Source: an uncultured Candidatus Saccharibacteria bacterium
Lineage (GTDB): Bacteria > Patescibacteriota > Saccharimonadia > Saccharimonadales > JAGQNJ01
Direction: 5' to 3'
NCBI GenBank assembly: GCA_964493895.1
Contig: CAZBPY010000004.1
Location: 13,271-77,270 of the forward strand
Length of the DNA stretch: 64,000 bases
In this document: positions 24,929 to 59,907 of the stretch, piece after piece
Layout of the letters: every line of letters begins with the position of its first letter
Position numbering within the stretch: the first letter of the stretch is position 1
Made by a program: the position numbers and the translations under genes
The notes under the pieces: generated by a model
Told to the model about the DNA's origin: nothing
What the model saw: only the letters and a program-made list of their open reading frames with translations
Databases searched by the model: none

Positions 24929-25537
24929 CTAGTGTTTTTTGGACTTTCGGCGCGGCTGGTGATCTTTGTAGGCTAGTTCACGGCGCAACTCATCAATTCG
25001 GATGATGTACTTCTCATAAGGTTTTAGTAAGGAGGAATAAAACCGGTTCGGTGTCATGATAGCTTTGAGGCGATTCTTTTCGGCGAGATACTCGGCCAAA
25101 CAGTAAAAGTCACCGTCACCGGAGACAATGATGGCTTTCTCGTACTTTGGCAGGAACTTCATAGCATACAGAACCAGTTCGGCGTCAACATTTCCCTTCA
25201 CCGCTGGACCATCTTTCTTTTTATCGCCGTTTTTGCCGGAGGAGCCGTTGCCACCGGCACTTGACTCATCAGCTGGCCCCATGCCGCCAACCGTCGGCTT
25301 TAAAACCACCGAATAGCCCATGTCATGCAAGCCGTGGTACATATCTTCATGCTCGTACATATAGCCAATGAACAAAAAAGCCCGCGTCACACCGTATTCG
25401 GTCTTAAGGTATTCGTAGAACTTTTTCCAATCCATCTTCCAGCCCACCCGCTGAGTGCCCAGATTCAGATTTTGGCTGTCAATAAAGGCGTAGACACCTT
25501 TGGGTTTGGCTGGTTTTTTTCTTCGAAATGGCCGCAT
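24929..25537 (-). CDS. NYN/LabA-like (PIN-like) domain protein with a Gly/Ser/Lys-rich insertion
   Basis: YAFIDSQNLNLG N-terminal acidic motif and IIVSGDGDFYCL. An internal GGMGPADESSAGGNGSSGKNGDKKKDG insert. Confidence 0.7.
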   Translation of the reverse strand: MRPFRRKKPAKPKGVYAFIDSQNLNLGTQRVGWKMDWKKFYEYLKTEYGVTRAFLFIGYMYEHEDMYHGLHDMGYSVVLKPTVGGMGPADESSAGGNGSSGKNGDKKKDGPAVKGNVDAELVLYAMKFLPKYEKAIIVSGDGDFYCLAEYLAEKNRLKAIMTPNRFYSSLLKPYEKYIIRIDELRRELAYKDHQPRRKSKKH

Positions 25538-25557
25538 TTATGGATATTGTACCATTA

Positions 25558-26247
25558 TTAAGCTTCGAGTTTCTGAGCACGCCTCAATAAATTAGCGATA
25601 TTATGATTAAACCATTTGATGGTGCCGCTGTGCTCACGTATCAACGGTACGATCTCGTTTGGGGCGTCTTCAGCCCATAGCCGCAGGCGCCTCTGAGCTT
25701 GCCAGTAAAGCACGATTGGATCCAAAATTCCTAAGGCCACCACAAAAGGAGCCTGTGGCGACTGCTGCAATGGCTGCCAGATTTGACTGAGCTTTTCTTT
25801 TGTAAGCCCGGGGTTGTTAGCCTTATAGTCCGATCTAGCCTTAAGAAACAGTGGGTTGTGCATGACCACTGATGCTGGATCAGTCCCGCCGGCAGCGTAG
25901 ATTCCCGGTGCCAATAGCTCACCGTTCTGGCGTTGAGCATGAAGCCCCATGCCCATTCCCAAACTCACTCCGCAAAATCGTCGCTGTCGATAATCAACTG
26001 TTGACTGCAGATAGTTTTTACGAATATCTTCGGCACAATCAGGCAGTAGTCCAGGATTTCCGCCGATCAAGACCTCATTCGGATATTGATATGCTAGCAC
26101 ATCATAGCCACCATCATTCAGAGTATCAATCGCCAAGCCGGCACCTCGGAAATAGTCAATTTCTCCGGAGTGACCGCAGACTAAAGCCGCCGATTGGCCG
26201 CTGGGTCTGTCGGCTGGAAATTCTCGTCTTTCAAACGCCAAGCTCAT
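25558..26247 (-). CDS. Putative alpha/beta-hydrolase-fold protein
   Basis: GxSxG-like nucleophile elbow (CGVSLGMG). 229 aa. Otherwise unassigned. Confidence 0.4.
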   Translation of the reverse strand: MSLAFERREFPADRPSGQSAALVCGHSGEIDYFRGAGLAIDTLNDGGYDVLAYQYPNEVLIGGNPGLLPDCAEDIRKNYLQSTVDYRQRRFCGVSLGMGMGLHAQRQNGELLAPGIYAAGGTDPASVVMHNPLFLKARSDYKANNPGLTKEKLSQIWQPLQQSPQAPFVVALGILDPIVLYWQAQRRLRLWAEDAPNEIVPLIREHSGTIKWFNHNIANLLRRAQKLEA

Positions 26248-43923: not shown

Positions 43924-44610
43924 CTATATGGCACCCGTATATTTTCCGCGAGCTTTATCGCTGACCAGCTTGCCACTGTCAATGGTGATGACCCGGCGCT
44001 TTAGTTTATTAACAATATCCTGGTTGTGAGTAGTTAGCAGTACAGTTGTGCCATAGCGGTTAATTTTCTCTAGTACTTTAATGACGTCCCAGGCGTGTTT
44101 GGGGTCAAGATTCCCGGTCGGCTCATCGGCTATAAGGATTTTTGGTTGCCGAGCTATTGCCCGGGCAATAGCGACGCGCTGCCTTTCCCCTCCAGATAAT
44201 TGCCAGGGGTACTGTTTCTCTTTGCCCTTTAGACCGACAATCGACAGGACTCGGGGCACGGTGTGCTCAATCTCTTTGTTGCTAGCTCCTACAATTTCTA
44301 AGGCAAAGGCTACGTTTTCTTCAACGGTTTTATTAGGCAGCAGTTTGAAGTCTTGAAAAACTACCCCGATTTTCCGCCTAATCAGGGGGATTTTTTTGTC
44401 GGGTAGATGTTCGTAATCAATGCCGCCAACCACTATTTTACCGCTATTAGGCCTTTCCTCGCGAGTAAGCAATTTCAAAAAAGTCGACTTACCAGCCCCA
44501 CTAGCTCCGACAATTACCACAAATTCTTTCGATTCAACGTGGAGGCTAACGCGGTCTAGGGCTACATTGGTCTTATTGTAAACTTTTGTAACTCGGTCAA
44601 GCAAAATCAT
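43924..44610 (-). CDS. ftsE: Cell division ATP-binding protein FtsE
   Basis: Walker [10 protein letters not shown], signature LSGGERQR, Walker [10 protein letters not shown]. 228 aa. Confidence 0.93.
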
Positions 44611-44641
44611 GCATAACCATTATACCAGAAGGTAATTATGC

Positions 44642-46864: not shown

Positions 46865-48160
46865 TCAATGCTTTTGCCAAAGTGATTCAAGATGGGGCAA
46901 AAGCTCGTTCACAAATTTAGAATCGCAGTTACCCAAAACGCCTAGACCACCGATTTTCTCGTCGAATAGTTGATTGGCCACGGCTACCATCTCCTCTTTG
47001 GTAACATTATCTATCCGCCCCGGAATGGCATAGGTATCTTCGATGTGATCATCAAAAAAATATCGGCTACTATACCCCATAGCTGTTCCAGCGACAGTCT
47101 GGGCACTGCGTTGAAATCGACCCAAGGCATATTGTTTAGCGGCAATAATGTCTTGGTCAGCGATCTTGTTGCTGCGAACAAAGCTAATCTCGCGGACAAT
47201 TATGTCAAAAAGCTTAATGATGTTTTGGGGCATGACTTGTGCGGCAAACCACCAATTGCTGCCGCCCTTCCATCGGGCGTAGGAAGAATTCATTCCATAA
47301 ACCAGACCCTGTTCGCGGGCAGCCCCGAAAATCCTGGAGTGCAGAGTTTCAGTCAACATGTTATTGACCAGTGCTAGAGCATCGGTCTCTTTGTTCTGCA
47401 TCCAGCGGGTCATGAATGTATCGATATAAAAATAAATGTTATCGACGGTCTTGTTAGGTATAAACAGTGGTTTTTTGACGTTCTTGGGCGTCTCTTGGTT
47501 GAGCTTGCGCCGGCCGCCTTTATTAGTTGGCAAGGCAATGCTTTCAAACAATTTGGCAATGGCTTCTTGCCGGGCGGCCGGCAACTTGCCAGCAACCACA
47601 AACCTAATATTGTCAGTAGTGTGGGTAGCTGCATAGTGAGCCTTGATGTCTTCAAGTTTGACGTTACCCATTCGCTTGACTCGTTCTTGATCAGTCATGG
47701 CACACAAGCCATACTTTTCACGCAGGGCCAGACTCAGGTGTCGAAAATGATTATTAGACCGGGCAATTAATTCTTCTTGGACATTGCCGAACTCAGCTTG
47801 AAACTCTTCTTCTAAAAACAGCGGCTTGGTAATGGCAAAAATAAACAGCTCTAAAACCCGTTGCCACTCAAAATCAGCACATTCAACCTCATAAGTAATA
47901 TCGTAAGCACCAGTCGAAGCATTATAATATGCGCCGTTTTTTTCAATCTCGCGCTGGAAATCTTTGGCCCGGGAAAAGCGTTGGTTAGCATTGAAAATCA
48001 GATGCTCTAACAGATGAGCAGTCTCCCATTTATCCCGGTTAAGCAGATATTCGCCAGCTCGAAAGTTGACGTCACAAGTTAGCACTGTGGCATCGGGAAT
48101 GTGGATCATAAGCCCTTTGGCACCGTTGGATAGCTTGAGTTCGCTAACGGTATGCTTCAT
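46865..48160 (-). CDS. M16-family (pitrilysin/insulinase-like) zinc peptidase
   Basis: Inverted zinc motif HxxEH (HLLEHLIF). 431 aa. The start overlaps the secA stop (TAATG). Confidence 0.75.
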   Translation of the reverse strand: MKHTVSELKLSNGAKGLMIHIPDATVLTCDVNFRAGEYLLNRDKWETAHLLEHLIFNANQRFSRAKDFQREIEKNGAYYNASTGAYDITYEVECADFEWQRVLELFIFAITKPLFLEEEFQAEFGNVQEELIARSNNHFRHLSLALREKYGLCAMTDQERVKRMGNVKLEDIKAHYAATHTTDNIRFVVAGKLPAARQEAIAKLFESIALPTNKGGRRKLNQETPKNVKKPLFIPNKTVDNIYFYIDTFMTRWMQNKETDALALVNNMLTETLHSRIFGAAREQGLVYGMNSSYARWKGGSNWWFAAQVMPQNIIKLFDIIVREISFVRSNKIADQDIIAAKQYALGRFQRSAQTVAGTAMGYSSRYFFDDHIEDTYAIPGRIDNVTKEEMVAVANQLFDEKIGGLGVLGNCDSKFVNELLPHLESLWQKH

Positions 48161-50835
48161 TATCGGCGACGCCCTTTCGCCCGGCGCTTGCGCTCGGCTT
48201 TTCTGGCTTTGGCTTTGCTGCGCTTTTTCTTTGGAGCTGGCCTTGGCCGAGCAGTTGGCTGAGCAGCAGCGACAGCTGGATCGGCCGGCAGATTGGCTCC
48301 AATTGGCGGCATCGGATTAATTGCTGATGGAGCGTTTAAGAAGTCAGATTCTTCAAACTCATCGGCTTCAAGAATTTGGTCGGCGTTATCAACTGATCGA
48401 CGAGCCGCCCTGGTTAATTCTGTTTCAATCGGCCGATCCAGCTGGTCCTCACTGACTGGCTGAGCATTATAAATAGCCCGCAGCACATCGCGGCGCAAAG
48501 TAGACTGCATGTCTTCAAACATTGCCTGGGCTTGGCGGCGATATTCGACCAGCGGATCTTTCTGACCGACTCCCATCCAGCCAATACCATTACGCAAGTG
48601 ATCCATATCTTCGAGATGCTGCATCCAGAGATTATCAAGTACTTGCAGGTAGATGTCGCGTTCGACTTTACGCATGACTTCGTGGCCAAAAGCGGCTTCG
48701 CGGGCTTCGTAGAGTTCTTCAGCTTTTTGTTTTATGACTTTTGGAAACGTCAGAATATCAGTGTCGAACAGTTCATCTAGAGTTGCTTCATCAAATGGGA
48801 AAATATCCAAAATGACATCCTCAAAACCTGGTTGAGTAGCCTGAGGTGAGTTGGCCAGAGCGTCGGATTCTTGCTTGATAATGAAACGGATGCGAGCACT
48901 AATGTCGGCTTGTTTTAGAATTTCACGGCGCATTGTGTAAGTAGCTCGGCGGTGGCGGTTCATGACATCATCGTATTTAACGACGTTTTTTCGAGTGTCA
49001 AAGTGAAAGCCTTCAACTTTCTTTTGAGCCCCTTCTAGAGATTTGGATATAAAGCGATTTTCAATTGGCTGGTCTTCAGAATCCGTTAAACGGTTCATAA
49101 CCGCAGCGATTCTTTCACCACCGAAAATTCGCATCAAGTCGTCTTCACAAGACACGAAGAATTGGCTGACACCGGGGTCACCTTGGCGACCGGATCGACC
49201 GCGCAACTGGTTGTCGATACGGCGGGATTCGTGGCGCTCGGAGCCCAACACAAACAGCCCGCCGGCCTTTTTGGCCTCTGCATCTAAAACGATGTCCGTG
49301 CCGCGGCCAGCAATGTTGGTCGCCAGGGTGACCGCACCTTTGGTGCCAGCTTTGGCTACGATAGCCGCTTCTTTTTCATTATTCTTAGCATTCAAAACCT
49401 GGTGCGGAATGCCAGCCTTTTTTAGCAACCTGGATAGTTCTTCGTTTTTCTCGATTGAAACCGTGCCAATTAGAACCGGCTGGCCTTTTTTGTGCAGCTG
49501 CTGGACTTCTTTAATAATGGCTCGGAACTTTCCAGCCTCGGTCTTATAAATCCGATCCGGCCGATCTTCGCGAATAATTGGTTTGTTCGGTGGAATTTGA
49601 ACTACATCCAACTCGTAGACCTGATGAAATTCTTCACTCTCGGTTTCGGCTGTGCCGGTCATGCCAGCCAACTTGTCATACAAACGGAAGTAGTTCTGGA
49701 ACGAAATACTGGCCAGGGTCATTGATTCTTCTTGAACCGGCACAGCCTCTTTAGCTTCTATAGCTTGGTGCAGGCCCTCATTATAGCGGCGACCAGGCAG
49801 TAAGCGACCAGTAAATTCATCAACGATTACTACTTCACCATCCCTGGTAACGACATAGTTTTTATCGCGGTGAAAAAGAGCCTGAGCTCTTAGAGCTTGT
49901 TCTAAATGGTAAATCGTCCGAATATTTTGGTTGGCATATAGACTATCGATGCCCAGCATTTTCTCAACTTCGTCAATACCCTCGTTAGTCAGCACCACGC
50001 TGTTGCGCTTTTCGTCTTTGGTATAGTGTTTGCTTTCGCTAAGGCGTTTTACTAAGCGAGCAAATTGCTCATAGGCAGTGGCACTAGCTGCCGCCGGAGC
50101 CGAAATGATTAATGGAGTTCGAGCTTCGTCAATTAAGATAGAGTCAACTTCGTCAACGATGGCGAAATTCAAATCTCGCTGGCGCAGCTGGTCAACTTCC
50201 CGAACCATATTGTCGCGTAGATAATCAAAACCGAACTCATTATTTGTTCCATAAGTAATGTCAGCCTGATAGGCCTCCTGGCGAGTGCAAGGTCGCAGAT
50301 GTTTTAGCCGCGGATCGACATGCTTGTCGTTCTCGAACTTTGGATCATAGATAAAAGATTCTTCAGGAATGATTACGCCAACCGACAAACCCAGGAAGTC
50401 AAAAACTGGTCCGTTCCAGCCAGCATCACGCTGAGCCAGATAGTCGTTAACCGTCACTAGATGAGCCCCCTGGCCTGTCAAACCATTCAAAAACAGAGGC
50501 AGAATAGCCATCAAGGTCTTACCCTCGCCGGTTTTCAGTTCGGCAACATTACCTTCATGCAGAACCATACCGCCCATCAACTGAACATCAAAATGGCGCA
50601 TTTTCAGTTTGCGGTCTGATACTTCGCGGGCCAGAGCAAAAGCATCAGGTAAAATCTTGTCCAACGACTCCTTTTCCAGACGCTTTTTTAGTTTATCAGT
50701 CTGTTGACCCAGTACCTTATCTGTCATTTTTTTGTATTTAGGCGCCAAGGCGTTGACTTCCACAACCCGCTTGCTAAGCCTTTTTAGAGTGCGGGCCTGG
50801 GGATCTCCTAAAACTTTCTTGAAAACTTTTTTCAT
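48160..50835 (-). CDS. secA: Preprotein translocase ATPase SecA
   Basis: 891 aa. MRHFDVQLMGG, TGEGKT, DEVDSILIDEARTPLIIS, TNIAGRGTDI. Lys/Arg-rich C-terminus. Confidence 0.97.
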   Translation of the reverse strand: MKKVFKKVLGDPQARTLKRLSKRVVEVNALAPKYKKMTDKVLGQQTDKLKKRLEKESLDKILPDAFALAREVSDRKLKMRHFDVQLMGGMVLHEGNVAELKTGEGKTLMAILPLFLNGLTGQGAHLVTVNDYLAQRDAGWNGPVFDFLGLSVGVIIPEESFIYDPKFENDKHVDPRLKHLRPCTRQEAYQADITYGTNNEFGFDYLRDNMVREVDQLRQRDLNFAIVDEVDSILIDEARTPLIISAPAAASATAYEQFARLVKRLSESKHYTKDEKRNSVVLTNEGIDEVEKMLGIDSLYANQNIRTIYHLEQALRAQALFHRDKNYVVTRDGEVVIVDEFTGRLLPGRRYNEGLHQAIEAKEAVPVQEESMTLASISFQNYFRLYDKLAGMTGTAETESEEFHQVYELDVVQIPPNKPIIREDRPDRIYKTEAGKFRAIIKEVQQLHKKGQPVLIGTVSIEKNEELSRLLKKAGIPHQVLNAKNNEKEAAIVAKAGTKGAVTLATNIAGRGTDIVLDAEAKKAGGLFVLGSERHESRRIDNQLRGRSGRQGDPGVSQFFVSCEDDLMRIFGGERIAAVMNRLTDSEDQPIENRFISKSLEGAQKKVEGFHFDTRKNVVKYDDVMNRHRRATYTMRREILKQADISARIRFIIKQESDALANSPQATQPGFEDVILDIFPFDEATLDELFDTDILTFPKVIKQKAEELYEAREAAFGHEVMRKVERDIYLQVLDNLWMQHLEDMDHLRNGIGWMGVGQKDPLVEYRRQAQAMFEDMQSTLRRDVLRAIYNAQPVSEDQLDRPIETELTRAARRSVDNADQILEADEFEESDFLNAPSAINPMPPIGANLPADPAVAAAQPTARPRPAPKKKRSKAKARKAERKRRAKGRRR

Positions 50836-50880
50836 TAGTAATTAATCACCTCTTCTGTCAACTCAGTCTATTGTAGCAAC

Positions 50881-51246
50881 TTAGACTTGTCTGCGCGACC
50901 GAATTTTGGCCACCATGCGATGCGGTAAACGCATCCTTGAATGCGTTTCTTTGTACTTTTTAATTTGGTTTTTTAGCTTCGTCTCAATAATATCTACCGC
51001 TGCGTAAATATTCATGGTGGTCTCAGCAATCCTTAAAGTGTCGTGCGGCAGATTCAAAATCACCTCACAAGTATATTTTTGACCGCCCTTGGAGTTGTTG
51101 AGCTTTAACTTGACCACAAGATGAGCCGCTTCCCTAGCCCGTCGCGGAATAAATTTATCGACACTGCCAAGTTTTTTGGTGGCATACTTACGGAGCCTAG
51201 GTTCGACGTCCATATGAACGCCGGAAATTTCTAATTTTTGAATCAT
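50881..51246 (-). CDS. hpf: Ribosome hibernation promoting factor / RaiA family (short form)
   Basis: 121 aa. Beta-alpha-beta-beta-beta-alpha pattern with IYAAVDIIETKLKNQIKKYK. The start overlaps the serS stop. Confidence 0.8.
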   Translation of the reverse strand: MIQKLEISGVHMDVEPRLRKYATKKLGSVDKFIPRRAREAAHLVVKLKLNNSKGGQKYTCEVILNLPHDTLRIAETTMNIYAAVDIIETKLKNQIKKYKETHSRMRLPHRMVAKIRSRRQV

Positions 51247-52541
51247 GCTAGTTTCTCTTTATTGTTCATATATGGCCGCAGCACTTCTGGGATAGTCACC
51301 GAGCCATCGCTATTCTGATAATTTTCCAGTATTGCAATCAGCGGCCTTTCCGAAAACACTGTAGCATCATTAGTGTGAGCCAGTTCGGTGACACCATCAG
51401 TCCGATGGACCTTAGTGCGCATACCTCGAGCCTGAAAATCAGTTATATGATCAGCTGTGTGCGTTTCACGGTACTGACCCTGAGCCGGCAGCCAAACATT
51501 AATATCAACGCCTTTGGCGTTAGGAAAACCAATATCGGCCGTGCACTTTTCTAGAACCTGATAAGGCAAGCCCAGTTGCTGCATTAAATATTCCTGTATG
51601 GCTACCTGGAAGAGATGCTCATCAAGTGACCGATCAGCGGTGGTAAAGCTTTCCATCTCTAATTTATTAAACTGATGCAAACGGAAAATGCCCTCGGTAT
51701 CTTTGCCATAGCTGCCGGCTTCACGACGAAAGGCTGTGGTGTAACCCACCAACCGCAGCGGTAAATCTTTCTCATCTAGAGTTTCGCCTAAAAACATTGG
51801 CGACAAAGTGTGTTCGGCACTGGCGTTTAACCATAAGTCTTCGTCTTCAAGTTTGTAAGTCATTTCTTCGCGATTTAATCGACCGGTAGCTTCGAAAACT
51901 TCTGTTTTAGCCACGGCTGGCGGCAAAACAAAAGTAAACGGTTTAGGGCTAACTTCCAGATTGTTATCTTCGGCAATTTGAGCCAGAATCTTTTGGTCGG
52001 TTAAGATATCGATGCCGTACTGCCACAAGGCAAATTCCAGCCTGGCCAAATCACCCATGATGTAGGCAAAGCGGGCACCGGCAACCTTGGCGGCTCTCTC
52101 CTTGTCCAGCCAGCCGTGTTTTTCAGCTAGTTCAGCGTGACTTTTAGGTTTAAAGGCAAAGTCCGGTTTTTCACCCACGGTTCGAACCACGACATTTTCT
52201 TCTTCGCTCGAACCAACTGGAACTTCCGGCAAGGCTATATTTGGTATTTTGCGTAAGCCAGCCTTAAAGTCGGCTTCGAGTTTTTCTAGTTGATCCTCCT
52301 TGGTCGATAGCTCATCCTTGATCTGTTTGCCTTTTGTGATATCTGCTTCAGATGGTTTGCTACCTTTGGCGGCATGCGCTAGTCTATTGCGCTGAGCCCT
52401 TAGGTTCTCAACCTCGGTGATTAGCTCCCGGCGCTGTTCATCAACCTTCAGCAAAGCCTTTACATCGACTTCATAACCCTTGGCTCGAGCATTGGCGGCC
52501 ACAGCATCAGGATTGTCCCGAATAAACTGGATGTCTAACAT
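51243..52541 (-). CDS. serS: Serine--tRNA ligase
   Basis: MLDIQFIRDNP N-terminal coiled-coil arm. Class II motifs (FRREAGS, RLHQFNKLE, GQYRETHTADH-type region). 432 aa. Confidence 0.95.
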   Translation of the reverse strand: MLDIQFIRDNPDAVAANARAKGYEVDVKALLKVDEQRRELITEVENLRAQRNRLAHAAKGSKPSEADITKGKQIKDELSTKEDQLEKLEADFKAGLRKIPNIALPEVPVGSSEEENVVVRTVGEKPDFAFKPKSHAELAEKHGWLDKERAAKVAGARFAYIMGDLARLEFALWQYGIDILTDQKILAQIAEDNNLEVSPKPFTFVLPPAVAKTEVFEATGRLNREEMTYKLEDEDLWLNASAEHTLSPMFLGETLDEKDLPLRLVGYTTAFRREAGSYGKDTEGIFRLHQFNKLEMESFTTADRSLDEHLFQVAIQEYLMQQLGLPYQVLEKCTADIGFPNAKGVDINVWLPAQGQYRETHTADHITDFQARGMRTKVHRTDGVTELAHTNDATVFSERPLIAILENYQNSDGSVTIPEVLRPYMNNKEKLA

Positions 52542-52596
52542 GATTACCTATTATTATACCAGGTTTGACGCTGCAGTTTATAGCCGCACCTCCCTG

Positions 52597-53364
52597 TTAT
52601 TTAGCTTTAATGTGATCGAGTGTCAACTTGGTACGCTGCCGAGCATACTCACAAAAATCACAAGGTCCGCCCATGGCCGCCGTCCCAACCTCTGGCATAT
52701 CACCTTCCAGGGTGTCTTTCATCTGCATTAAAGTTTTCTCCACCCACTTGTCACTGCCCCTGTAGGGGATGATTTTGGTCCGGAATTCAACTCGGTCATA
52801 AAAACCCTCGACATCAAGACGGCCATTTGCATAAACAAAGTATCCGGTGTCACTGACTTTAAAGCCATTTTGCCTAAGCAACCATTGATAGACCTCGATC
52901 TGTCGTTTGTAGGCAATCTGCCAATCCGAGTCAATATTTACTTCGCTGGCTTTGGCAGTAGCCTTATAGTCAACCACTATTAGCTCTTGGTTGGAATTGA
53001 CCCAGATATCATCGACTGCGCCAGTCACTAGCAGATTAGATGGCTGGTGCAAAACCTGAATACCGACAAAATTTTCTCGCCATTTATCCAGATCATCATG
53101 AGCAAACGGTATAGCCTCGACGCTATACTCTTGCATGATGGCATGCGGTGTACCCTTTTTACGGTGAACGTCAAATTCTTTTTTCAGCAGTTCATCGATA
53201 GCCGAATTAATTCGAAATGGCGGGCTGCTGGGACGTCTGATCTTCAACCGGGCATCCAACCAAAAGCAACGCCGGCACTGTTTGAATAGTTCAATCTTGC
53301 TGCGGCTAACTTTAAAGGCCGCTTTTTGGCCAGGTTTATACGGCAAAGCCCTTTGATATCCCAT
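52597..53364 (-). CDS. PD-(D/E)XK nuclease, Cas4/RecB-like, with four Cys
   Basis: N-terminal CRRC and C-terminal CDFC. GAVDDIWV, VVDYKAT (D-x-K) and QIEVYQW motifs. 255 aa. Confidence 0.7.
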   Translation of the reverse strand: MGYQRALPYKPGQKAAFKVSRSKIELFKQCRRCFWLDARLKIRRPSSPPFRINSAIDELLKKEFDVHRKKGTPHAIMQEYSVEAIPFAHDDLDKWRENFVGIQVLHQPSNLLVTGAVDDIWVNSNQELIVVDYKATAKASEVNIDSDWQIAYKRQIEVYQWLLRQNGFKVSDTGYFVYANGRLDVEGFYDRVEFRTKIIPYRGSDKWVEKTLMQMKDTLEGDMPEVGTAAMGGPCDFCEYARQRTKLTLDHIKAK

Positions 53365-53381
53365 AGGCTTTTATTGTAGCA

Positions 53382-54161
53382 CTACGGACGCAGTGCTCCG
53401 AAGAAGACCTGCCAAGCTAAAGCTGACTTGGCCACCAGGCTTAAAATCATATAAGCCCTTTCACCGTAGAGGTAATCTTTCCAGGATCCAATTTTTTTGT
53501 ATTGCAAATACATATTGACAGCAAAACAGTTGAAAAACACCAATAAGCTGCCGAAAATCCAGTAAACAAAGCTAGGGATTTGGCCACTGCCGTAAACATT
53601 AGATCCCCAGAGGTAAATTGCCACCACAACCCATGGCACAAGGCCGGCTTTACCGCCCAAAATAAATGGCAGCCAGTTAACTTTTCGAGACTTGCCGTTC
53701 CAAACCTCCATAATTAGTCCAGTTCCGTTCATTACAGCCGTTAAGGCAAAGATCATCAGCAGGCTAGCTAGGTCATAAACACCGGCCAAAATAGCAATGG
53801 CCACCATCATGATACTAGCGCTAAAGGCATATTCATACCATCTAGCCGGATTGAGATTACTCTTGAGGTTTTTCTCATACCATCTGCGGCAAAACGTCGC
53901 TAAACTGATGTGAGCCAAAGCTGATGCCAAGAAGAAAGCCGCCACTAGCCAGGCTAGATTAACATCAAAGATCACCTGCGACGCTGGTACCAATTGAACC
54001 GAGTCGCCGGCAGTTAGGCTGTTTGGCGTCAAAAAACTAATACTGATCGGAAAGGATGCGGCTTTGGCCAGTACTAGTACTGCCACCGCCTGCACTGCAT
54101 GCAAGCCGGCCAACACAAAATTCCAAGTTCGCAAATGTTCGAAGTTAACTGTTTTTTTCAT
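53382..54161 (-). CDS. Heliorhodopsin (7-TM retinal-binding protein)
   Basis: 259 aa, 7 TM. C-terminal signature YLQYKKIGSWKDYLYGERAYMILSLVAKSALAWQVF with the Schiff-base Lys (K245). E110 in RWYEYAFSAS. H21 and H84 at family-typical positions. Confidence 0.85.
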   Translation of the reverse strand: MKKTVNFEHLRTWNFVLAGLHAVQAVAVLVLAKAASFPISISFLTPNSLTAGDSVQLVPASQVIFDVNLAWLVAAFFLASALAHISLATFCRRWYEKNLKSNLNPARWYEYAFSASIMMVAIAILAGVYDLASLLMIFALTAVMNGTGLIMEVWNGKSRKVNWLPFILGGKAGLVPWVVVAIYLWGSNVYGSGQIPSFVYWIFGSLLVFFNCFAVNMYLQYKKIGSWKDYLYGERAYMILSLVAKSALAWQVFFGALRP

Positions 54162-54173
54162 GTCTTTACTTTA

Positions 54174-54701
54174 CTACTTCTTGAGACGAGCCGCAAACTT
54201 GTCACGCAACTTTTTCAGCTTTGGATTTATTACTACTTGACAGTAAGCCGCTTCGGGGTGTTTTTGATAGTAATTATGGTGCTCAGGTTCAGCTTCATAG
54301 AAAACTTGGAGCGGCTCTACCTCTGTTACGATCGGGTCAAGCCAAAGCTTTTGAGCTTTATCAATTGACCGACGAACAATACCTTCTTGCTCTGGCGAAT
54401 TGAACAAAATAATTGAACGATATTGCGGACCAACATCATTACCCTGCCGATCCGGAGTAGTCGGATCGTGAATAGTCCAAAAGATATCCAGGATGTCCTC
54501 TAGACTGATAATTTCCGGATTAAAGGTCACCTGCACAGTTTCAGCCCAGCCGTCATCACTGCCATGCAAAGTAGCATATGACGGTTGCGGCCCCTGTCCG
54601 CCGGCATAGCCTGGTACAATCTTCTCAACACCATCAACTAGTTGGTAGGCCGCCTCCAGGCACCAGAAACAACCTCCGCCGAGAACTATTGACTGACTCA
54701 T
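54174..54701 (-). CDS. msrA: Peptide methionine (S)-S-oxide reductase
   Basis: GGGCFWCLEAAY active site. 175 aa. Confidence 0.94.
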   Translation of the reverse strand: MSQSIVLGGGCFWCLEAAYQLVDGVEKIVPGYAGGQGPQPSYATLHGSDDGWAETVQVTFNPEIISLEDILDIFWTIHDPTTPDRQGNDVGPQYRSIILFNSPEQEGIVRRSIDKAQKLWLDPIVTEVEPLQVFYEAEPEHHNYYQKHPEAAYCQVVINPKLKKLRDKFAARLKK

Positions 54702-54874
54702 TTATTTTGTTTGGTAGCCAGCATAGTGATGGCCATTAGCGCAAAACCAATTCCCATACCAATGAACAGTCCGGCCGCAGTATTGCCCAAAGCAATGCCG
54801 ACGCCCATACCGCCGATGATCCCGGCTGGCACGAAAATTGCCCCAGGATTACTGTCTTCTTTATTTTTTGCCAT
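54698..54874 (-). CDS. Unannotated 58-aa glycine-zipper membrane protein, translationally coupled to msrA
   Basis: Not in the ORF track because it is shorter than 60 aa. SD GGGAGGG lies 5 nt before the ATG at 54874. Sequence MAKNKEDSNPGAIFVPAGIIGGMGVGIALGNTAAGLFIGMGIGFALMAITMLATKQNK. Its stop TGA overlaps the msrA ATG (ATGA). Confidence 0.6.
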   Translation of the reverse strand: MAKNKEDSNPGAIFVPAGIIGGMGVGIALGNTAAGLFIGMGIGFALMAITMLATKQNK

Positions 54875-54900
54875 TTTGCCCTCCCTTTTTAGTTACTTAT

Positions 54901-57294
54901 TTACTCTTGTTGAGCTTTCCGGCGTCGATACCATGCATAAAACGCACCAGCCAGGGCGAGCAGAATAAGCAGCCACCACCATGACAGAGCGCTGCCAACT
55001 TTTTCAGTTGTTGCCGCAGAAACTTTGACATTGTCAGCATTCACCTCACCTGCTTGCTCGTCAGTGTCTTCAGTTTCACCCTCAACACCTTGGGCTACTT
55101 GATCTCCATCGCCACCGCCATCGCCGCCCCCGGCTCCATCAGGTCCAGCTGGGCCGGCACCGGCAGCTCCGGCTCCTCCATCAGCAGCAGTTGCTGCTAG
55201 AGGCTGGAAGAATAGTGTTGGTCCACCACCGCCGTCTTGGCCGCCGCCTCCATTTCCGCTAAGGACTATATTGAAGTCATCGGTTGGCTCTGGGTCAGCC
55301 TGGTTGCCAGCTTGGTCAACGGCTGATACAACAACATTGTAGCTGCCGATTGACAAAGATGGAGTAATGAATGACCAGGTTCCACCGGTGTTTTGAGCTT
55401 CTTTTGGAGTGTCGCCATTGATTGATACAAGCACTGTGGCATCTGGATCATTAATTGTTCCGGATAATGTCAGAACTGTATCGCTGGTGTCATCAATTGA
55501 GTCGAGTGTCACAACCGGAGCTGTATTATCGACAGTTACAGTGATCTTGGCAACAGATGGCCCGGGATTAGCTCGCGATCCATCTTTGTTATTGGCTTGG
55601 TCGCGTGTCTCGAAGTAAATGGTGTATTCCCCGTCCTCAAGACCGACAGTATCCCAATCTAATTCGTGAACCAACACTCCGTTAGTAAGCAAGCTTGTCT
55701 TTACATAGCCATTGGGCCCTTCGATACGGAAATAACTGTTCATTGGGTTATCATCAGTTACTTCGCCGACTAGCTTAACTAGGCCATTTACGAAATCGCC
55801 ATCATTATGAGATGTAATCTCCGCAAGAGGCGCATGACGGTCGATTGTAAAGTTTCGAACTAGCGTGGTTGACAGCGTATCTGATACATCCCGAGCATTG
55901 GCCTTGACGTAATAATCGCCATCGGCCAGACCGCTAGTATCACATGACAGAGTGAATTCATCGACGTTAAGAGCCAGGACATTTTTAGTACATGACTTAA
56001 TTAGTTGATTGGCGCTAGTGTAGATGTGGCCAGTAACCTGTTTTAGTTTGACGTTGTCGGTTGCTTTCACTTGAACCAGGCTATTAAAGATTGAGCTATC
56101 AACTGTTGGTTCGAGAATTTCGATGGTTGGTTTGGTTTTGTCATAGTAATAGTGGACTGGGTCGCTCCAATCACTGGCATTGCCAGCATTGTCAAAGGCT
56201 CGTACTCGAATGGTCACACCACCCTGCTCGAAAGTTGCCGGACTATGGTTGCGTTTGGATTGGTTGCCAGCAGTTTCACGGTACGGCCCGCCGCTAAAAC
56301 TGTGACCATCATCGTAAATGTACTCAATTTGGTACTTATTAATGCCATTAGCGTCTGTCGAATCTGTCCAGTCGTTTAGGATTGGTGAACTAGTGAAGGC
56401 TTGCTCATTCAATGGTTTTTCGATCTGGGGCGTTGTCGGAGCAACATTGTCAAAAGTTACTGTAAATGGCGTACTGTAATCAGAGCATAGATCCCCATTA
56501 CAGGCACTGAATGAGAAATAATGTATTCCAGGTCCTTGGGTAAAGTTGTCGTGGTAAACACCCAGACCTGATGAATAGCCGGCCAGATCAGTTGGGTTCC
56601 ATGGAGTACCTACTTTAAATGGTGAGCCGACTATGTCGTTCCAATACTTCAACTGATATCTAGTTACTGTCCCAGCGGAGTTAAGGCTAAAAATAAAGTG
56701 CTGTGAATCGGTTAAGCCTCCGTCAGGAACAACTTCACCGCTTGGATCTTCAGTAAAAGTGGCTGTTGGTACTTGGGGCGGCGGAGCTAATATATCAAAC
56801 AGAGTCCAATCAAAACGTTCGTCGGCTTCTGCACCAAAGGTGGACCTTATCTCAACATAATCATTACCTAAAAATTGCTTATCTGTACTGGAGTGACCGT
56901 TTACACAAAAGGCTGGATAACGATCTTCGACAGCCGGATTTGGATTTGGGCTGGCTAGAGCCTGACCTATATCACCATCTGTTCGATACTCAAAGCAACT
57001 TATATGATTAGCGGATATTTGGGTGCCGCCGTAAAAGCGCATGGTTATTTTTCCAGGGACGCTATCATCGAGAACTTCGGCATGTGCCCAACCATTGGTC
57101 ACATTATTCGCATGAGTGCTGGGATAGGCATAGGCAGCTCTAGCAATGTCTGGGTGAGATAATCCGACAGCTACTGCCGCCAAAGCAAAGCCTACGGCCA
57201 TCGCTCCATGGTATAAATGTCGAATCTTTTTGTTAAGGTTTTTGTATGAATTGAAAATGCGTTTAGTTCGCATAACTATGCTCCTCTGTTCCAA
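54901..57294 (-). CDS. Large secreted/cell-surface protein with Ig-like repeats, a Gly/Asp-rich stalk and a C-terminal TM anchor
   Basis: 797 aa. Signal-like N-terminus (AVGFALAAVAVGLSHPDIARA). Repeated beta-rich modules (DNVAPT, DKTKPT, DNTAPV linkers). GGGGQDGGGG...GGGDGGGDGD. C-terminal WWWLLILLALAGAFYAWYRRRKAQQE. Confidence 0.75.
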   Translation of the reverse strand: MEQRSIVMRTKRIFNSYKNLNKKIRHLYHGAMAVGFALAAVAVGLSHPDIARAAYAYPSTHANNVTNGWAHAEVLDDSVPGKITMRFYGGTQISANHISCFEYRTDGDIGQALASPNPNPAVEDRYPAFCVNGHSSTDKQFLGNDYVEIRSTFGAEADERFDWTLFDILAPPPQVPTATFTEDPSGEVVPDGGLTDSQHFIFSLNSAGTVTRYQLKYWNDIVGSPFKVGTPWNPTDLAGYSSGLGVYHDNFTQGPGIHYFSFSACNGDLCSDYSTPFTVTFDNVAPTTPQIEKPLNEQAFTSSPILNDWTDSTDANGINKYQIEYIYDDGHSFSGGPYRETAGNQSKRNHSPATFEQGGVTIRVRAFDNAGNASDWSDPVHYYYDKTKPTIEILEPTVDSSIFNSLVQVKATDNVKLKQVTGHIYTSANQLIKSCTKNVLALNVDEFTLSCDTSGLADGDYYVKANARDVSDTLSTTLVRNFTIDRHAPLAEITSHNDGDFVNGLVKLVGEVTDDNPMNSYFRIEGPNGYVKTSLLTNGVLVHELDWDTVGLEDGEYTIYFETRDQANNKDGSRANPGPSVAKITVTVDNTAPVVTLDSIDDTSDTVLTLSGTINDPDATVLVSINGDTPKEAQNTGGTWSFITPSLSIGSYNVVVSAVDQAGNQADPEPTDDFNIVLSGNGGGGQDGGGGPTLFFQPLAATAADGGAGAAGAGPAGPDGAGGGDGGGDGDQVAQGVEGETEDTDEQAGEVNADNVKVSAATTEKVGSALSWWWLLILLALAGAFYAWYRRRKAQQE

Positions 57295-57407: not shown

Positions 57408-57599
57408 TTAGCCCAGCAGCGCCTGCAAGCCGTAATAGACGATATAGGCTGGCCAGACGCATGCCTGCAAGAAAGCTACGACGATGTTCCAAAAGCCATC
57501 GGCGCGGCCAACGAAAAACACTAGCGCCCCGATCCAGGCCGTGAAAAATACCCAGCCACCGGGTCCGTGATTAGCTACTTTTTGACTATTCTTTCCCAT
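57408..57599 (-). CDS. Small two-TM membrane protein (hypothetical)
   Basis: 63 aa with two hydrophobic helices. Co-oriented with its neighbours. Confidence 0.45.
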   Translation of the reverse strand: MGKNSQKVANHGPGGWVFFTAWIGALVFFVGRADGFWNIVVAFLQACVWPAYIVYYGLQALLG

Positions 57600-58395: not shown

Positions 58396-59907
58396 TTAAT
58401 CGAAGTTGATGTCGGGGTAAATTGCCCTGGTGGTGGCATCGATCTCTGCCCTAAGTTGCGGGAATGGCACGCCTTCACGGGCTGAAACACCTTCAAATAC
58501 CCAAAAAACTCTTTCCGAATAACCCAAACCGCAAGCCGGCGGCATGCCATACTCCAGCATCTCGACATAATCAATATCCAGCATCTGGGCTTCATCGTCA
58601 CCCTCGTCGCGCAGGCGCTGCTGCTCCATGAAACGCTCTAATTGATCAATCGGGTCGTTCAGCTCACTCCAACCATTACACAGCTCCGAACCAGCAATAA
58701 CTGCTTGAAAACGCTGTACAAATCGTCCATCCTTGTCATCGGTCTTCGACAACGGCGAAATAAACGTCGGTGTGTCGATCAGCCAAACTGGACCGGCGAC
58801 CTCGGCACGAACCTTTTTCCATAACTTATCAATACCGCGAGCTCGATTTTCAGTCTTCTCGACCTCAATATTATGTTTCTTAAGTTGGGCTTTGACTTCA
58901 TCTAAAGTGCAATCAAAAACATCCAGGCCGTAGTGTTCTTTAATAACATCAGCGTATTTCCATCGCTCCCAACGAGCACCCATATCAACTTGCTTGCCCT
59001 CAATAGTGAACTTCAGGGTTCCGAAAGTTTCTTTGAGGACTTGTTTGAACATTTCCTCCATCATGGCCATGCCGTCTTGCCAGTCGGCATAAGCCCAGTA
59101 CCACTCCATGGCCACGTGTTCGGGCAAATGCTCATCGGAGTAATTTTCGTTTCTAAACCGCGGACCGATATCAAAAACCTTCTCAAAACCGCCGCCCAAC
59201 AAACGCTTGAGGGGTAATTCATGGCTAATGCGCAAGTAAAAATCCTGATCCAAGGCATCCATGTGCGTCACAAATGGCGTAGCATCAGCCCCACCAGTGG
59301 TGTGTTCTAAAACTGGAATGTTGATTTCTAGAAAGTCACGTTTGAGGAGAAAATCACGCGTAGCTTGCCAGAACTTGCTGCGGCGCACAAACCTTTGGCG
59401 CACCTCTGGATTGACGTTCATGTCAACATAGCGTCGGCGCATCCGCTCTTCTTTATTAGTAAAGCCATTCTCGGCCGTTGGCATAGGTCGTAGCGACTTG
59501 GTTAGTAGGCGCAACTTCTCGACATCAACTGAAATCTCGCCAGTTTGAGTCTTGACCACCTTGCCGCTGGCTTCGACAAAATCGCCCGGATCTAACAGGC
59601 TCAGATCAGTAAATTCTAACTCACTGTTTTTATAATCAGCCGATTCAATGCCGCCAGATCGCAAAAACAATTGGACATCACCGCTAGCGTCGCGCAGGAC
59701 TACAAAGGCTAGTTTACCAATGTCACGAATCCGGATAATTCGGCCGACAACCGAGACCTGTTGGCCTTCTAGGCTGGAAAAATCCTTGATGACTTCAGCG
59801 TTGGTGTGGGTACGATTTGAATTAGCCGGATAGGGGTTAACTCCCAAATCACGCAATTGTTTAAGTTTACGTAGCCGCTCATCGCGCAGCTCTTGCAGGT
59901 TTGCCAT
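58396..59907 (-). CDS. lysS: Lysine--tRNA ligase (class II)
   Basis: 503 aa. OB-fold N-terminus (VSVVGRIIRIRDIGKLAFVVLRD). Class II motifs (FRNE, GGADATPF region, GLGYSERV). Confidence 0.95.
   Translation of the reverse strand: MANLQELRDERLRKLKQLRDLGVNPYPANSNRTHTNAEVIKDFSSLEGQQVSVVGRIIRIRDIGKLAFVVLRDASGDVQLFLRSGGIESADYKNSELEFTDLSLLDPGDFVEASGKVVKTQTGEISVDVEKLRLLTKSLRPMPTAENGFTNKEERMRRRYVDMNVNPEVRQRFVRRSKFWQATRDFLLKRDFLEINIPVLEHTTGGADATPFVTHMDALDQDFYLRISHELPLKRLLGGGFEKVFDIGPRFRNENYSDEHLPEHVAMEWYWAYADWQDGMAMMEEMFKQVLKETFGTLKFTIEGKQVDMGARWERWKYADVIKEHYGLDVFDCTLDEVKAQLKKHNIEVEKTENRARGIDKLWKKVRAEVAGPVWLIDTPTFISPLSKTDDKDGRFVQRFQAVIAGSELCNGWSELNDPIDQLERFMEQQRLRDEGDDEAQMLDIDYVEMLEYGMPPACGLGYSERVFWVFEGVSAREGVPFPQLRAEIDATTRAIYPDINFD

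Follow-up and report, generated by a model that had tools for sequence, protein, structure and literature searches.

Gene order of a compact genome as the probable reason why heliorhodopsin, msrA and a RecB-like nuclease gene are neighbours in a Saccharibacteria contig

Does a heliorhodopsin (HeR) gene packed tightly between genes for a methionine sulfoxide reductase and a DNA nuclease mark a functional module, or does it reflect the gene order of a compact genome? We addressed this question for a 64,000-nt stretch of a Saccharibacteria contig (the window; all coordinates are window positions unless a locus is named). On the minus strand an open reading frame (ORF) of 58 amino acids (aa), hereafter mini58 (54698..54874), is followed by msrA (54174..54701), the HeR gene (53382..54161, 259 aa), a gene for a PD-(D/E)XK nuclease with four cysteines (52597..53364, 255 aa) and serS (51243-52541). 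The stop codon of mini58 overlaps the start codon of msrA by 4 nt (ATGA), and the following gaps measure 12, 17 and 55 nt. This order and these spacings, which were reported in a first-pass annotation of the window, were confirmed exactly. The same annotation had proposed a module against photo-damage composed of HeR, MsrA and the nuclease, and had regarded co-transcription of the genes as likely. Comparison with related loci makes it probable instead that the adjacency is a matter of gene order in a compact genome, with separate promoters for genes that would be functionally independent of each other.

One genome per species was scanned with a HeR alignment, which yielded 80 loci. These loci were compared by tblastn and by clustering of ORFs, the clusters were annotated with Pfam, and extra loci seeded from the nuclease and from msrA were added. 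A total of 70 of the 80 loci share one backbone order, which reads rseP-CPBP protease-proS-greA-lysS-(ABC-ftsX)-(zincin)-(DUF427)-msrA-(sortase, opposite strand)-HeR in its first half and HeR-(HAD)-(rumA)-(rsmE)-nuclease-serS-hpf-secA-M16 peptidase-prfA in its second half. Nine other distinct loci, retrieved with the nuclease or msrA as seed, show the same order. On the serS side the contacts are close and frequent: serS and hpf are adjacent in 40 of 42 loci, nuclease and serS in 37 of 53, the latter with a median gap of 17 nt.

The contacts of HeR itself were counted in the same way. The nuclease gene is located downstream of HeR in 58 of the 80 loci and is directly adjacent to it in two (L001 and L028); elsewhere the two are 150 nt to more than 3 kb apart, usually with one to six housekeeping genes (HAD hydrolase, rumA, rsmE) in the interval. 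Of the 80 loci, 42 have an msrA gene upstream of HeR at a distance of up to about 2 kb, and each of these 42 belongs to the backbone group; a comparable co-occurrence with HeR is seen for the unrelated backbone genes greA (44/80), rsmE (41/80) and DUF427 (38/80). Direct adjacency of msrA and HeR on the same strand occurs in only 10 of the 80 loci. The two are separated by an opposite-strand sortase gene in 19 loci and by other genes in 11; in two loci msrA is divergent, on the strand opposite to HeR. The neighbourhood of the window is thus conserved in relatives loosely as far as msrA is concerned, and not conserved for the nuclease contact or for mini58, which lacks a homologue there. HeR touches both msrA and the nuclease gene in the window because the sortase, HAD hydrolase, rumA and rsmE genes are absent in this lineage; judged from the compared loci, the contact between HeR and the nuclease gene is a lineage-specific outcome of losing the intervening genes.

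The tight packing says little, since it is not unusual for the host genome. The block is embedded in a run of 27 co-directional genes (35.5 to 59.9 kb), and among the 57 same-strand neighbouring gene pairs of the window the median gap is 27 nt, with gaps of at most 20 nt in 26 pairs (46%). The block would be part of a compact housekeeping array, with most genes in the same direction, that is common to environmental Saccharibacteria (Saccharimonadales), the group to which the HeR homologues belong, and HeR would occupy a variable slot in it between the lysS side and the nuclease-serS side.

Are the genes nevertheless transcribed together? The first-pass annotation had seen neither a terminator nor a promoter in the 12- and 17-nt gaps. 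As to terminators this was borne out, as a promoter/terminator scan found no more sites than in shuffled sequence. The generic promoter scan requires a −35 hexamer and consequently missed −10 elements placed close to start codons, and both gaps do hold elements of this kind. The −10-like sequence TAAAGT (54168..54173, minus strand) lies 6 nt before the HeR ATG and takes up half of the 12-nt gap. The extended −10 element TGCTACAAT (53373..53381, minus strand) adjoins the HeR stop codon, and 8 nt remain between its end and the ATG of the nuclease gene; another extended −10 element, TGGTATAAT (52553..52561, minus strand), ends 11 nt before the serS ATG.

To follow these elements through the relatives, the 60 nt upstream of start codons were aligned for the window and loci L001-L087 and L168-L175, and TANNNT hexamers starting at −15 to −11 were counted, so that all frequencies given here are motif matches only. 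A −10 hexamer precedes HeR in 62 of 93 cases (67%, about 17% expected), the nuclease gene in 59 of 73 (81%, about 12% expected) and serS in 59 of 69 (86%, about 9% expected), while Shine-Dalgarno (SD)-like sequences are found in 5%, 11% and 19% of these genes, respectively. The opposite pattern is seen for hpf, with a −10 hexamer in 2% (about 4% expected) and an SD-like sequence in 91%, and for secA, with 8% (about 24% expected) and 82%. The −10 hexamer carries a TGn extension in 46 HeR genes (49% of all HeR genes) and in 52 nuclease genes (71% of all nuclease genes). For serS, hexamers at −17 or −18, the position found in the window, form a second peak with 30 hexamer occurrences.

The same division is visible within the window. 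For 67 ORFs the upstream sequence was long enough for this comparison. A −10 element close to the start codon, beginning 11 to 15 nt and ending 6 to 10 nt ahead of it, is present in 18 of them and an SD-like sequence in 13, and the two signals never occur together. The start-proximal elements often read TGnTAnnnT, with further example sites at 44610-44640 and 25537-25560. The same split between −10 and SD is repeated for individual genes in about 90 related loci and suggests that the −10-only genes give leaderless transcripts. Leaderless-type gene starts, with a −10 box immediately ahead of the start codon, are described for Actinobacteria and some other bacteria. HeR and the nuclease gene are like them in that the −10 element ends 6 to 8 nt before the ATG and an SD sequence is lacking; the difference is that the transcription start sites are here predicted from motifs.

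The expectation of co-transcription is not upheld by these data: HeR, the nuclease gene and serS each have a conserved −10 element directly before the start codon and almost never an SD sequence. According to our model each of the three would start its own transcript, and the transcription units would be (upstream genes?)-mini58-msrA, HeR alone, the nuclease gene alone, and serS-hpf-secA. Leaderless messages are expected for HeR and the nuclease gene and a message with a very short leader for serS, with hpf and secA as internal operon genes. The serS-hpf-secA housekeeping unit (48160..52541, minus strand) was recognized by Pfam matches, and its hpf gene overlaps serS by 4 nt. In the window msrA has neither a −10 element nor an SD sequence of its own. 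Its translation probably depends on mini58, and the two genes may be part of an upstream unit.

These results bear on the idea that mini58, msrA, HeR and the nuclease gene constitute a single operon for a light-sensed response to photo-oxidative and DNA damage. The shared strand, the gaps of 12 to 17 nt and the lack of terminator-like sites above the shuffled expectation fit such an operon, as does the order msrA-HeR-nuclease-serS without intervening genes in two other loci (L001 and L176). Nevertheless, the block contains internal −10 elements, that of the nuclease gene being of the extended type and conserved in its family, the gene adjacency is not retained in relatives, short gaps are the norm in this genome, and mini58 is unique to this contig. 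Moreover, the nuclease family is far wider than HeR. It is large, as 1743 cluster representatives were obtained at E≤0.001 and clustering at 90% identity leaves over 8000 clusters, and in a metagenome scan seeded with distant nuclease representatives 79 of 80 loci of the distant branch had no HeR, serS or msrA nearby, this branch being another lineage in which the nuclease is not next to serS. The comparative data largely refute the single operon, which we regard as very improbable. The three-part module is likewise not supported, as the nuclease gene touches HeR in so few loci and has a −10 element of its own; on this comparative evidence the nuclease is a bystander to HeR.

If each product does its own job, as we consider most likely, HeR would act as a retinal-binding light sensor, MsrA would repair oxidised methionine, and the nuclease would be a general RecB-like exonuclease of DNA repair or recombination. 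The family assignments of the gene products are firm. The HeR protein matches PF18761 over residues 10-257 (E 1e-88, 297 bits, cutoff 26.7) and NF038020 with 301 bits (cutoff 100). S241-x3-K245, E110, H21 and H84 do not vary across an alignment of 37 sequences, and we take these residues to be the equivalents of those in the 48C12 reference numbering. Besides the full-length family match, the protein has the SxxxK lysine in its last helix, a conserved Glu counterion and two His residues, and the gene is apparently intact. The SxxxK motif serves as the criterion for the retinal-binding lysine of HeRs (PMC9166423). In one Saccharibacteria species a second, divergent HeR-like gene (L016:7086-7748, about 28% identity, about 306 aa) is located 59 nt downstream of the main HeR gene.

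The MsrA protein of the window matches PF01625 (E 5.5e-54, 183 bits) and TIGR00401 (160.5 bits, cutoff 108), and carries the active-site motif GGGCFWC at residues 8-14.

The nuclease was described in the first-pass annotation as Cas4-like, which is fair at the level of the superfamily. It matches PF12705 with 47.9 bits (cutoff 22). D118, D119 and K134 are invariant in the family, D132 is conserved in at least 90% of the sequences, and the D132-Y-K134 and Q155 to Y159 motifs are conserved. The four cysteines form a CxxC...CxxC pattern, with C30 and C33 near the N-terminus and C235 and C238 near the C-terminus, and all four are invariant or nearly so. The AlphaFold2 model has a predicted local distance difference test score (pLDDT) of 94. 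The best Foldseek matches of this model were the AdnAB nuclease domain, MGME1, Cas4 SSO0001, RecE, Exo5 and lambda exonuclease, at E-values of 1e-5 to 1e-3 and template modelling (TM) scores of only 0.35-0.45. A sequence search of the PDB with the nuclease gave chance matches only. The Pfam match above cutoff, the conserved catalytic residues and the RecB-like predicted fold place the protein among PD-(D/E)XK nucleases of the RecB-like type.

An identification as the Cas4 of CRISPR systems was rejected. The protein stays below the cutoffs of both models (PF01930, 17.4 bits, cutoff 22.7; TIGR00372, 35.3 bits, cutoff 65), and neither cas1/cas2 nor a CRISPR array is present beside the nuclease gene in the Pfam-labelled loci, where its neighbours are HeR or rRNA methyltransferase genes on one side and serS on the other. 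Cas4, like AddB, has its four cysteines arranged as one N-terminal and three C-terminal residues (1+3), in contrast to the 2+2 arrangement found here. In summary, the protein shares the PD-(D/E)XK core, the Q...Y motif, four conserved cysteines and the predicted fold with Cas4/RecB-family nucleases (SSO0001, AddB, AdnAB, MGME1, Exo5), and differs from Cas4 in its model scores, its cysteine arrangement, the lack of cas genes nearby and its constant neighbour serS.

With the nuclease and mini58 set aside as bystanders, a functional pair of HeR and MsrA has to be weighed. Light-activated HeR could bind MsrA or stimulate it allosterically, or the two could be co-regulated, and by analogy with published HeR pairs the repair of oxidised methionine would rise under photo-oxidative stress. 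Several observations favour such a pair and count against independence of the genes. The msrA gene lies upstream of HeR in 42 of the 70 backbone loci, and three MsrA subfamilies with 39-49% identity between the groups occupy the same position: a GCFWC type of about 175 aa (27 loci including the window, whose MsrA belongs to group G3), a GCFWG type of about 160 aa (20 loci) and a third type on the opposite strand (2 loci). These subfamilies are interspersed on a rough HeR tree. Whichever subfamily is present, msrA stays no more than about 2 kb upstream of HeR despite changing left-hand neighbours, which can be DUF427, DUF308, lysS, ftsX, ddl, or a TrmB-family gene together with an intervening unannotated gene. 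All five nuclease-seeded loci and four of six new msrA-seeded loci were next to HeR, and so was one more msrA-seeded locus that had been picked through its nuclease match. An independent lineage outside the Saccharibacteria backbone (L163:3329-6736) has genes for a PEMT/ICMT-like methyltransferase, TspO/MBR and HeR, with a gap of 21 nt between the latter two, followed within 2 kb by msrB-msrA, and L052 has an msrB gene on the opposite strand, 1.3 kb upstream of HeR. In addition, the missing terminators would permit read-through transcription across the block of the window, and published gene contexts tie HeRs to redox and oxidative-stress genes (PMC8612252).

On the other hand, the frequency with which msrA co-occurs with HeR equals that of unrelated backbone genes such as greA or rsmE. 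The two genes are rarely adjacent and co-directional, a sortase gene often stands between them, and HeR has its own conserved promoter element. In the 10 loci that have HeR outside the backbone, no msrA gene occurs within 6 kb. Among the 66 backbone loci whose upstream sequence extends over 2 kb or more, about 24 are without msrA; one of these is the close relative L175, which reads ftsX-HeR-nuclease. Conversely, msrA of the GCFWC type occurs without HeR in unrelated contexts in L169 and L171, two loci that lie outside the syntenic region and possibly outside the Saccharibacteria. In L163 HeR and msrB-msrA are kept apart by a clear intrinsic terminator and an ORF on the opposite strand, and L133 contains an msrA-msrB-TspO cluster without HeR. 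Finally, the ten groups of recurrent HeR neighbours given in PMC11109279 do not include MsrA.

The exchange of MsrA subfamilies at one position is not specific for this gene either. The slot after greA (window equivalent 58396-59907) holds a class II lysyl-tRNA synthetase (LysRS)-like gene (PF00152, about 505 aa) in 31 loci and a class I LysRS gene (PF01921, about 510 aa) in 20 loci (L001-L080), which looks like a same-slot swap of non-homologous enzymes. Same-slot replacement probably also affects serS: a group of 14 loci with less than 45% identity to the serS of the window stands apart from the main spread of 45-75% and has shorter ORFs (about 415 aa versus about 431 aa). Since such swaps occur elsewhere in the region, the three msrA subtypes need not reflect selection linked to HeR. 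Weighing both sides, we consider a functional pair of HeR and MsrA unlikely, though deserving of attention. A more specific form of it would be a light-tuned protein-repair pair of HeR and methionine sulfoxide reductase in environmental Saccharibacteria, in which selection keeps msrA beside HeR, or msrB-msrA and TspO in another lineage, and illuminated HeR binds or activates MsrA; this form appears distinctly unlikely to us, and a genuine link between HeR and MsrA of any kind is doubtful.

The variety of genes found at the HeR slot allows a further explanation, namely that the interval from lysS to the nuclease gene is a hotspot of gene gain and loss, and that msrA and HeR co-occur by landing in the same permissive site. 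This would need neither a functional link nor strict vertical inheritance. In its favour, the cargo of the slot comprises genes for predicted pilin-like proteins (by inspection only), a 797-aa protein with immunoglobulin-like (Ig-like) domains, DUF308, zincin, sortase, HAD hydrolases and a second HeR-like paralogue, and three MsrA subtypes and two lysS classes alternate there. The position of HeR relative to the nuclease gene and serS is nevertheless stable in 70 of the 80 species, which looks like one old insertion that was vertically inherited. We rate the hotspot as quite improbable as an explanation of its own; it overlaps with the explanation by a housekeeping array.

The msrA position itself is replaced in one clade (L009, L018, L027, L038 and L060) by a cluster of three genes (about 510, 268 and 405 aa) directly upstream of HeR. 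The encoded proteins have hydrophobic N-terminal segments and appear pilin-like by sequence inspection only.

For the glycine-rich, hydrophobic mini58 protein no Pfam or NCBIfam match was obtained even at E≤1, and tblastn searches of the 176 fetched loci, the closest relative L001 among them, detected no homologue either. The sole support for mini58 as a real gene is a strong upstream SD sequence, GGGAGGG (54879..54885, minus strand), 4 nt upstream of its ATG. By these data mini58 is a candidate gene and a bystander to HeR. Further upstream are the gene for the 797-aa surface protein with Ig-like domains (54901..57294, minus strand; Big_13 and Big_3_3 matches), which also has a Gly/Ala/Asp-rich stretch and a C-terminal hydrophobic anchor, and upstream of it an ORF for a membrane protein of 63 aa (57408-57599). 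Both are SD-led, and at their place relatives have ABC-ftsX-DUF427. Among the fetched loci only L001 contains a partial homologue of the 797-aa protein, and from this distribution its gene is a lineage-specific insertion upstream of mini58-msrA. A search of the region 50.0-58.5 kb against Rfam gave no match. At the other end of the array, secA of one relative (L081:11700-14309, on a 1.1-Mb contig) was called as five short fragments, which may represent a pseudogene or frameshift errors of long reads.

How does the locus compare with known HeR contexts? A gene-context study proposed that HeRs are sensory switches for the defence against light-induced oxidative stress, and reported glutaredoxin, glutathione peroxidase, catalase, thioredoxin and two-component systems as neighbours at an intergenic distance cutoff of <10 bp (Bulzu et al. 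2021, PMC8612252). The HeR of the window is like the Patescibacteria/candidate phyla radiation (CPR) and monoderm HeRs of that study in its full length, its SxxxK motif and its monoderm-type CPR host. It differs in its neighbours MsrA and nuclease, as the main text of that study names neither Msr genes nor nucleases. The first-pass annotation had stated that published work links HeRs to glutamine synthetase and photolyase, and these pairs have indeed been shown experimentally: demonstrated partners are glutamine synthetase (PMC9529153), photolyase and the ABC transporter OmrDE (PMC11109279). The published pairs were reported to be encoded in one operon, binding was shown, and light alters the activity of the partner. 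The locus studied here resembles them in that HeR is encoded next to a partner candidate on the same strand, and differs in that HeR has its own conserved promoter element and the neighbour is often found behind an opposite-strand gene. No paper in the searchable literature mentions heliorhodopsin together with methionine sulfoxide reductase, in agreement with the earlier remark that a partnership with MsrA would be new. A pairing of HeR with MsrA would be new in its particulars, within an already published framework of oxidative stress.

For the biology of Saccharibacteria these results have two sides. Adjacency is a weak guide to function in the compact and highly syntenic genomes of the CPR, and the mixture of genes with start-proximal promoters, presumably leaderless, and SD-led genes matters for operon inference in the phylum. 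Each confirmed partner of HeRs began as a neighbouring gene, so that a new conserved neighbour is worth checking. The hypothesis that remains is bounded to HeR and MsrA only, and their recurring loose neighbourhood might mean something. If true, the pair would extend the short list of HeR partners by an enzyme that repairs protein oxidation, and HeR would have a function in ultra-small episymbionts that lends itself to testing.

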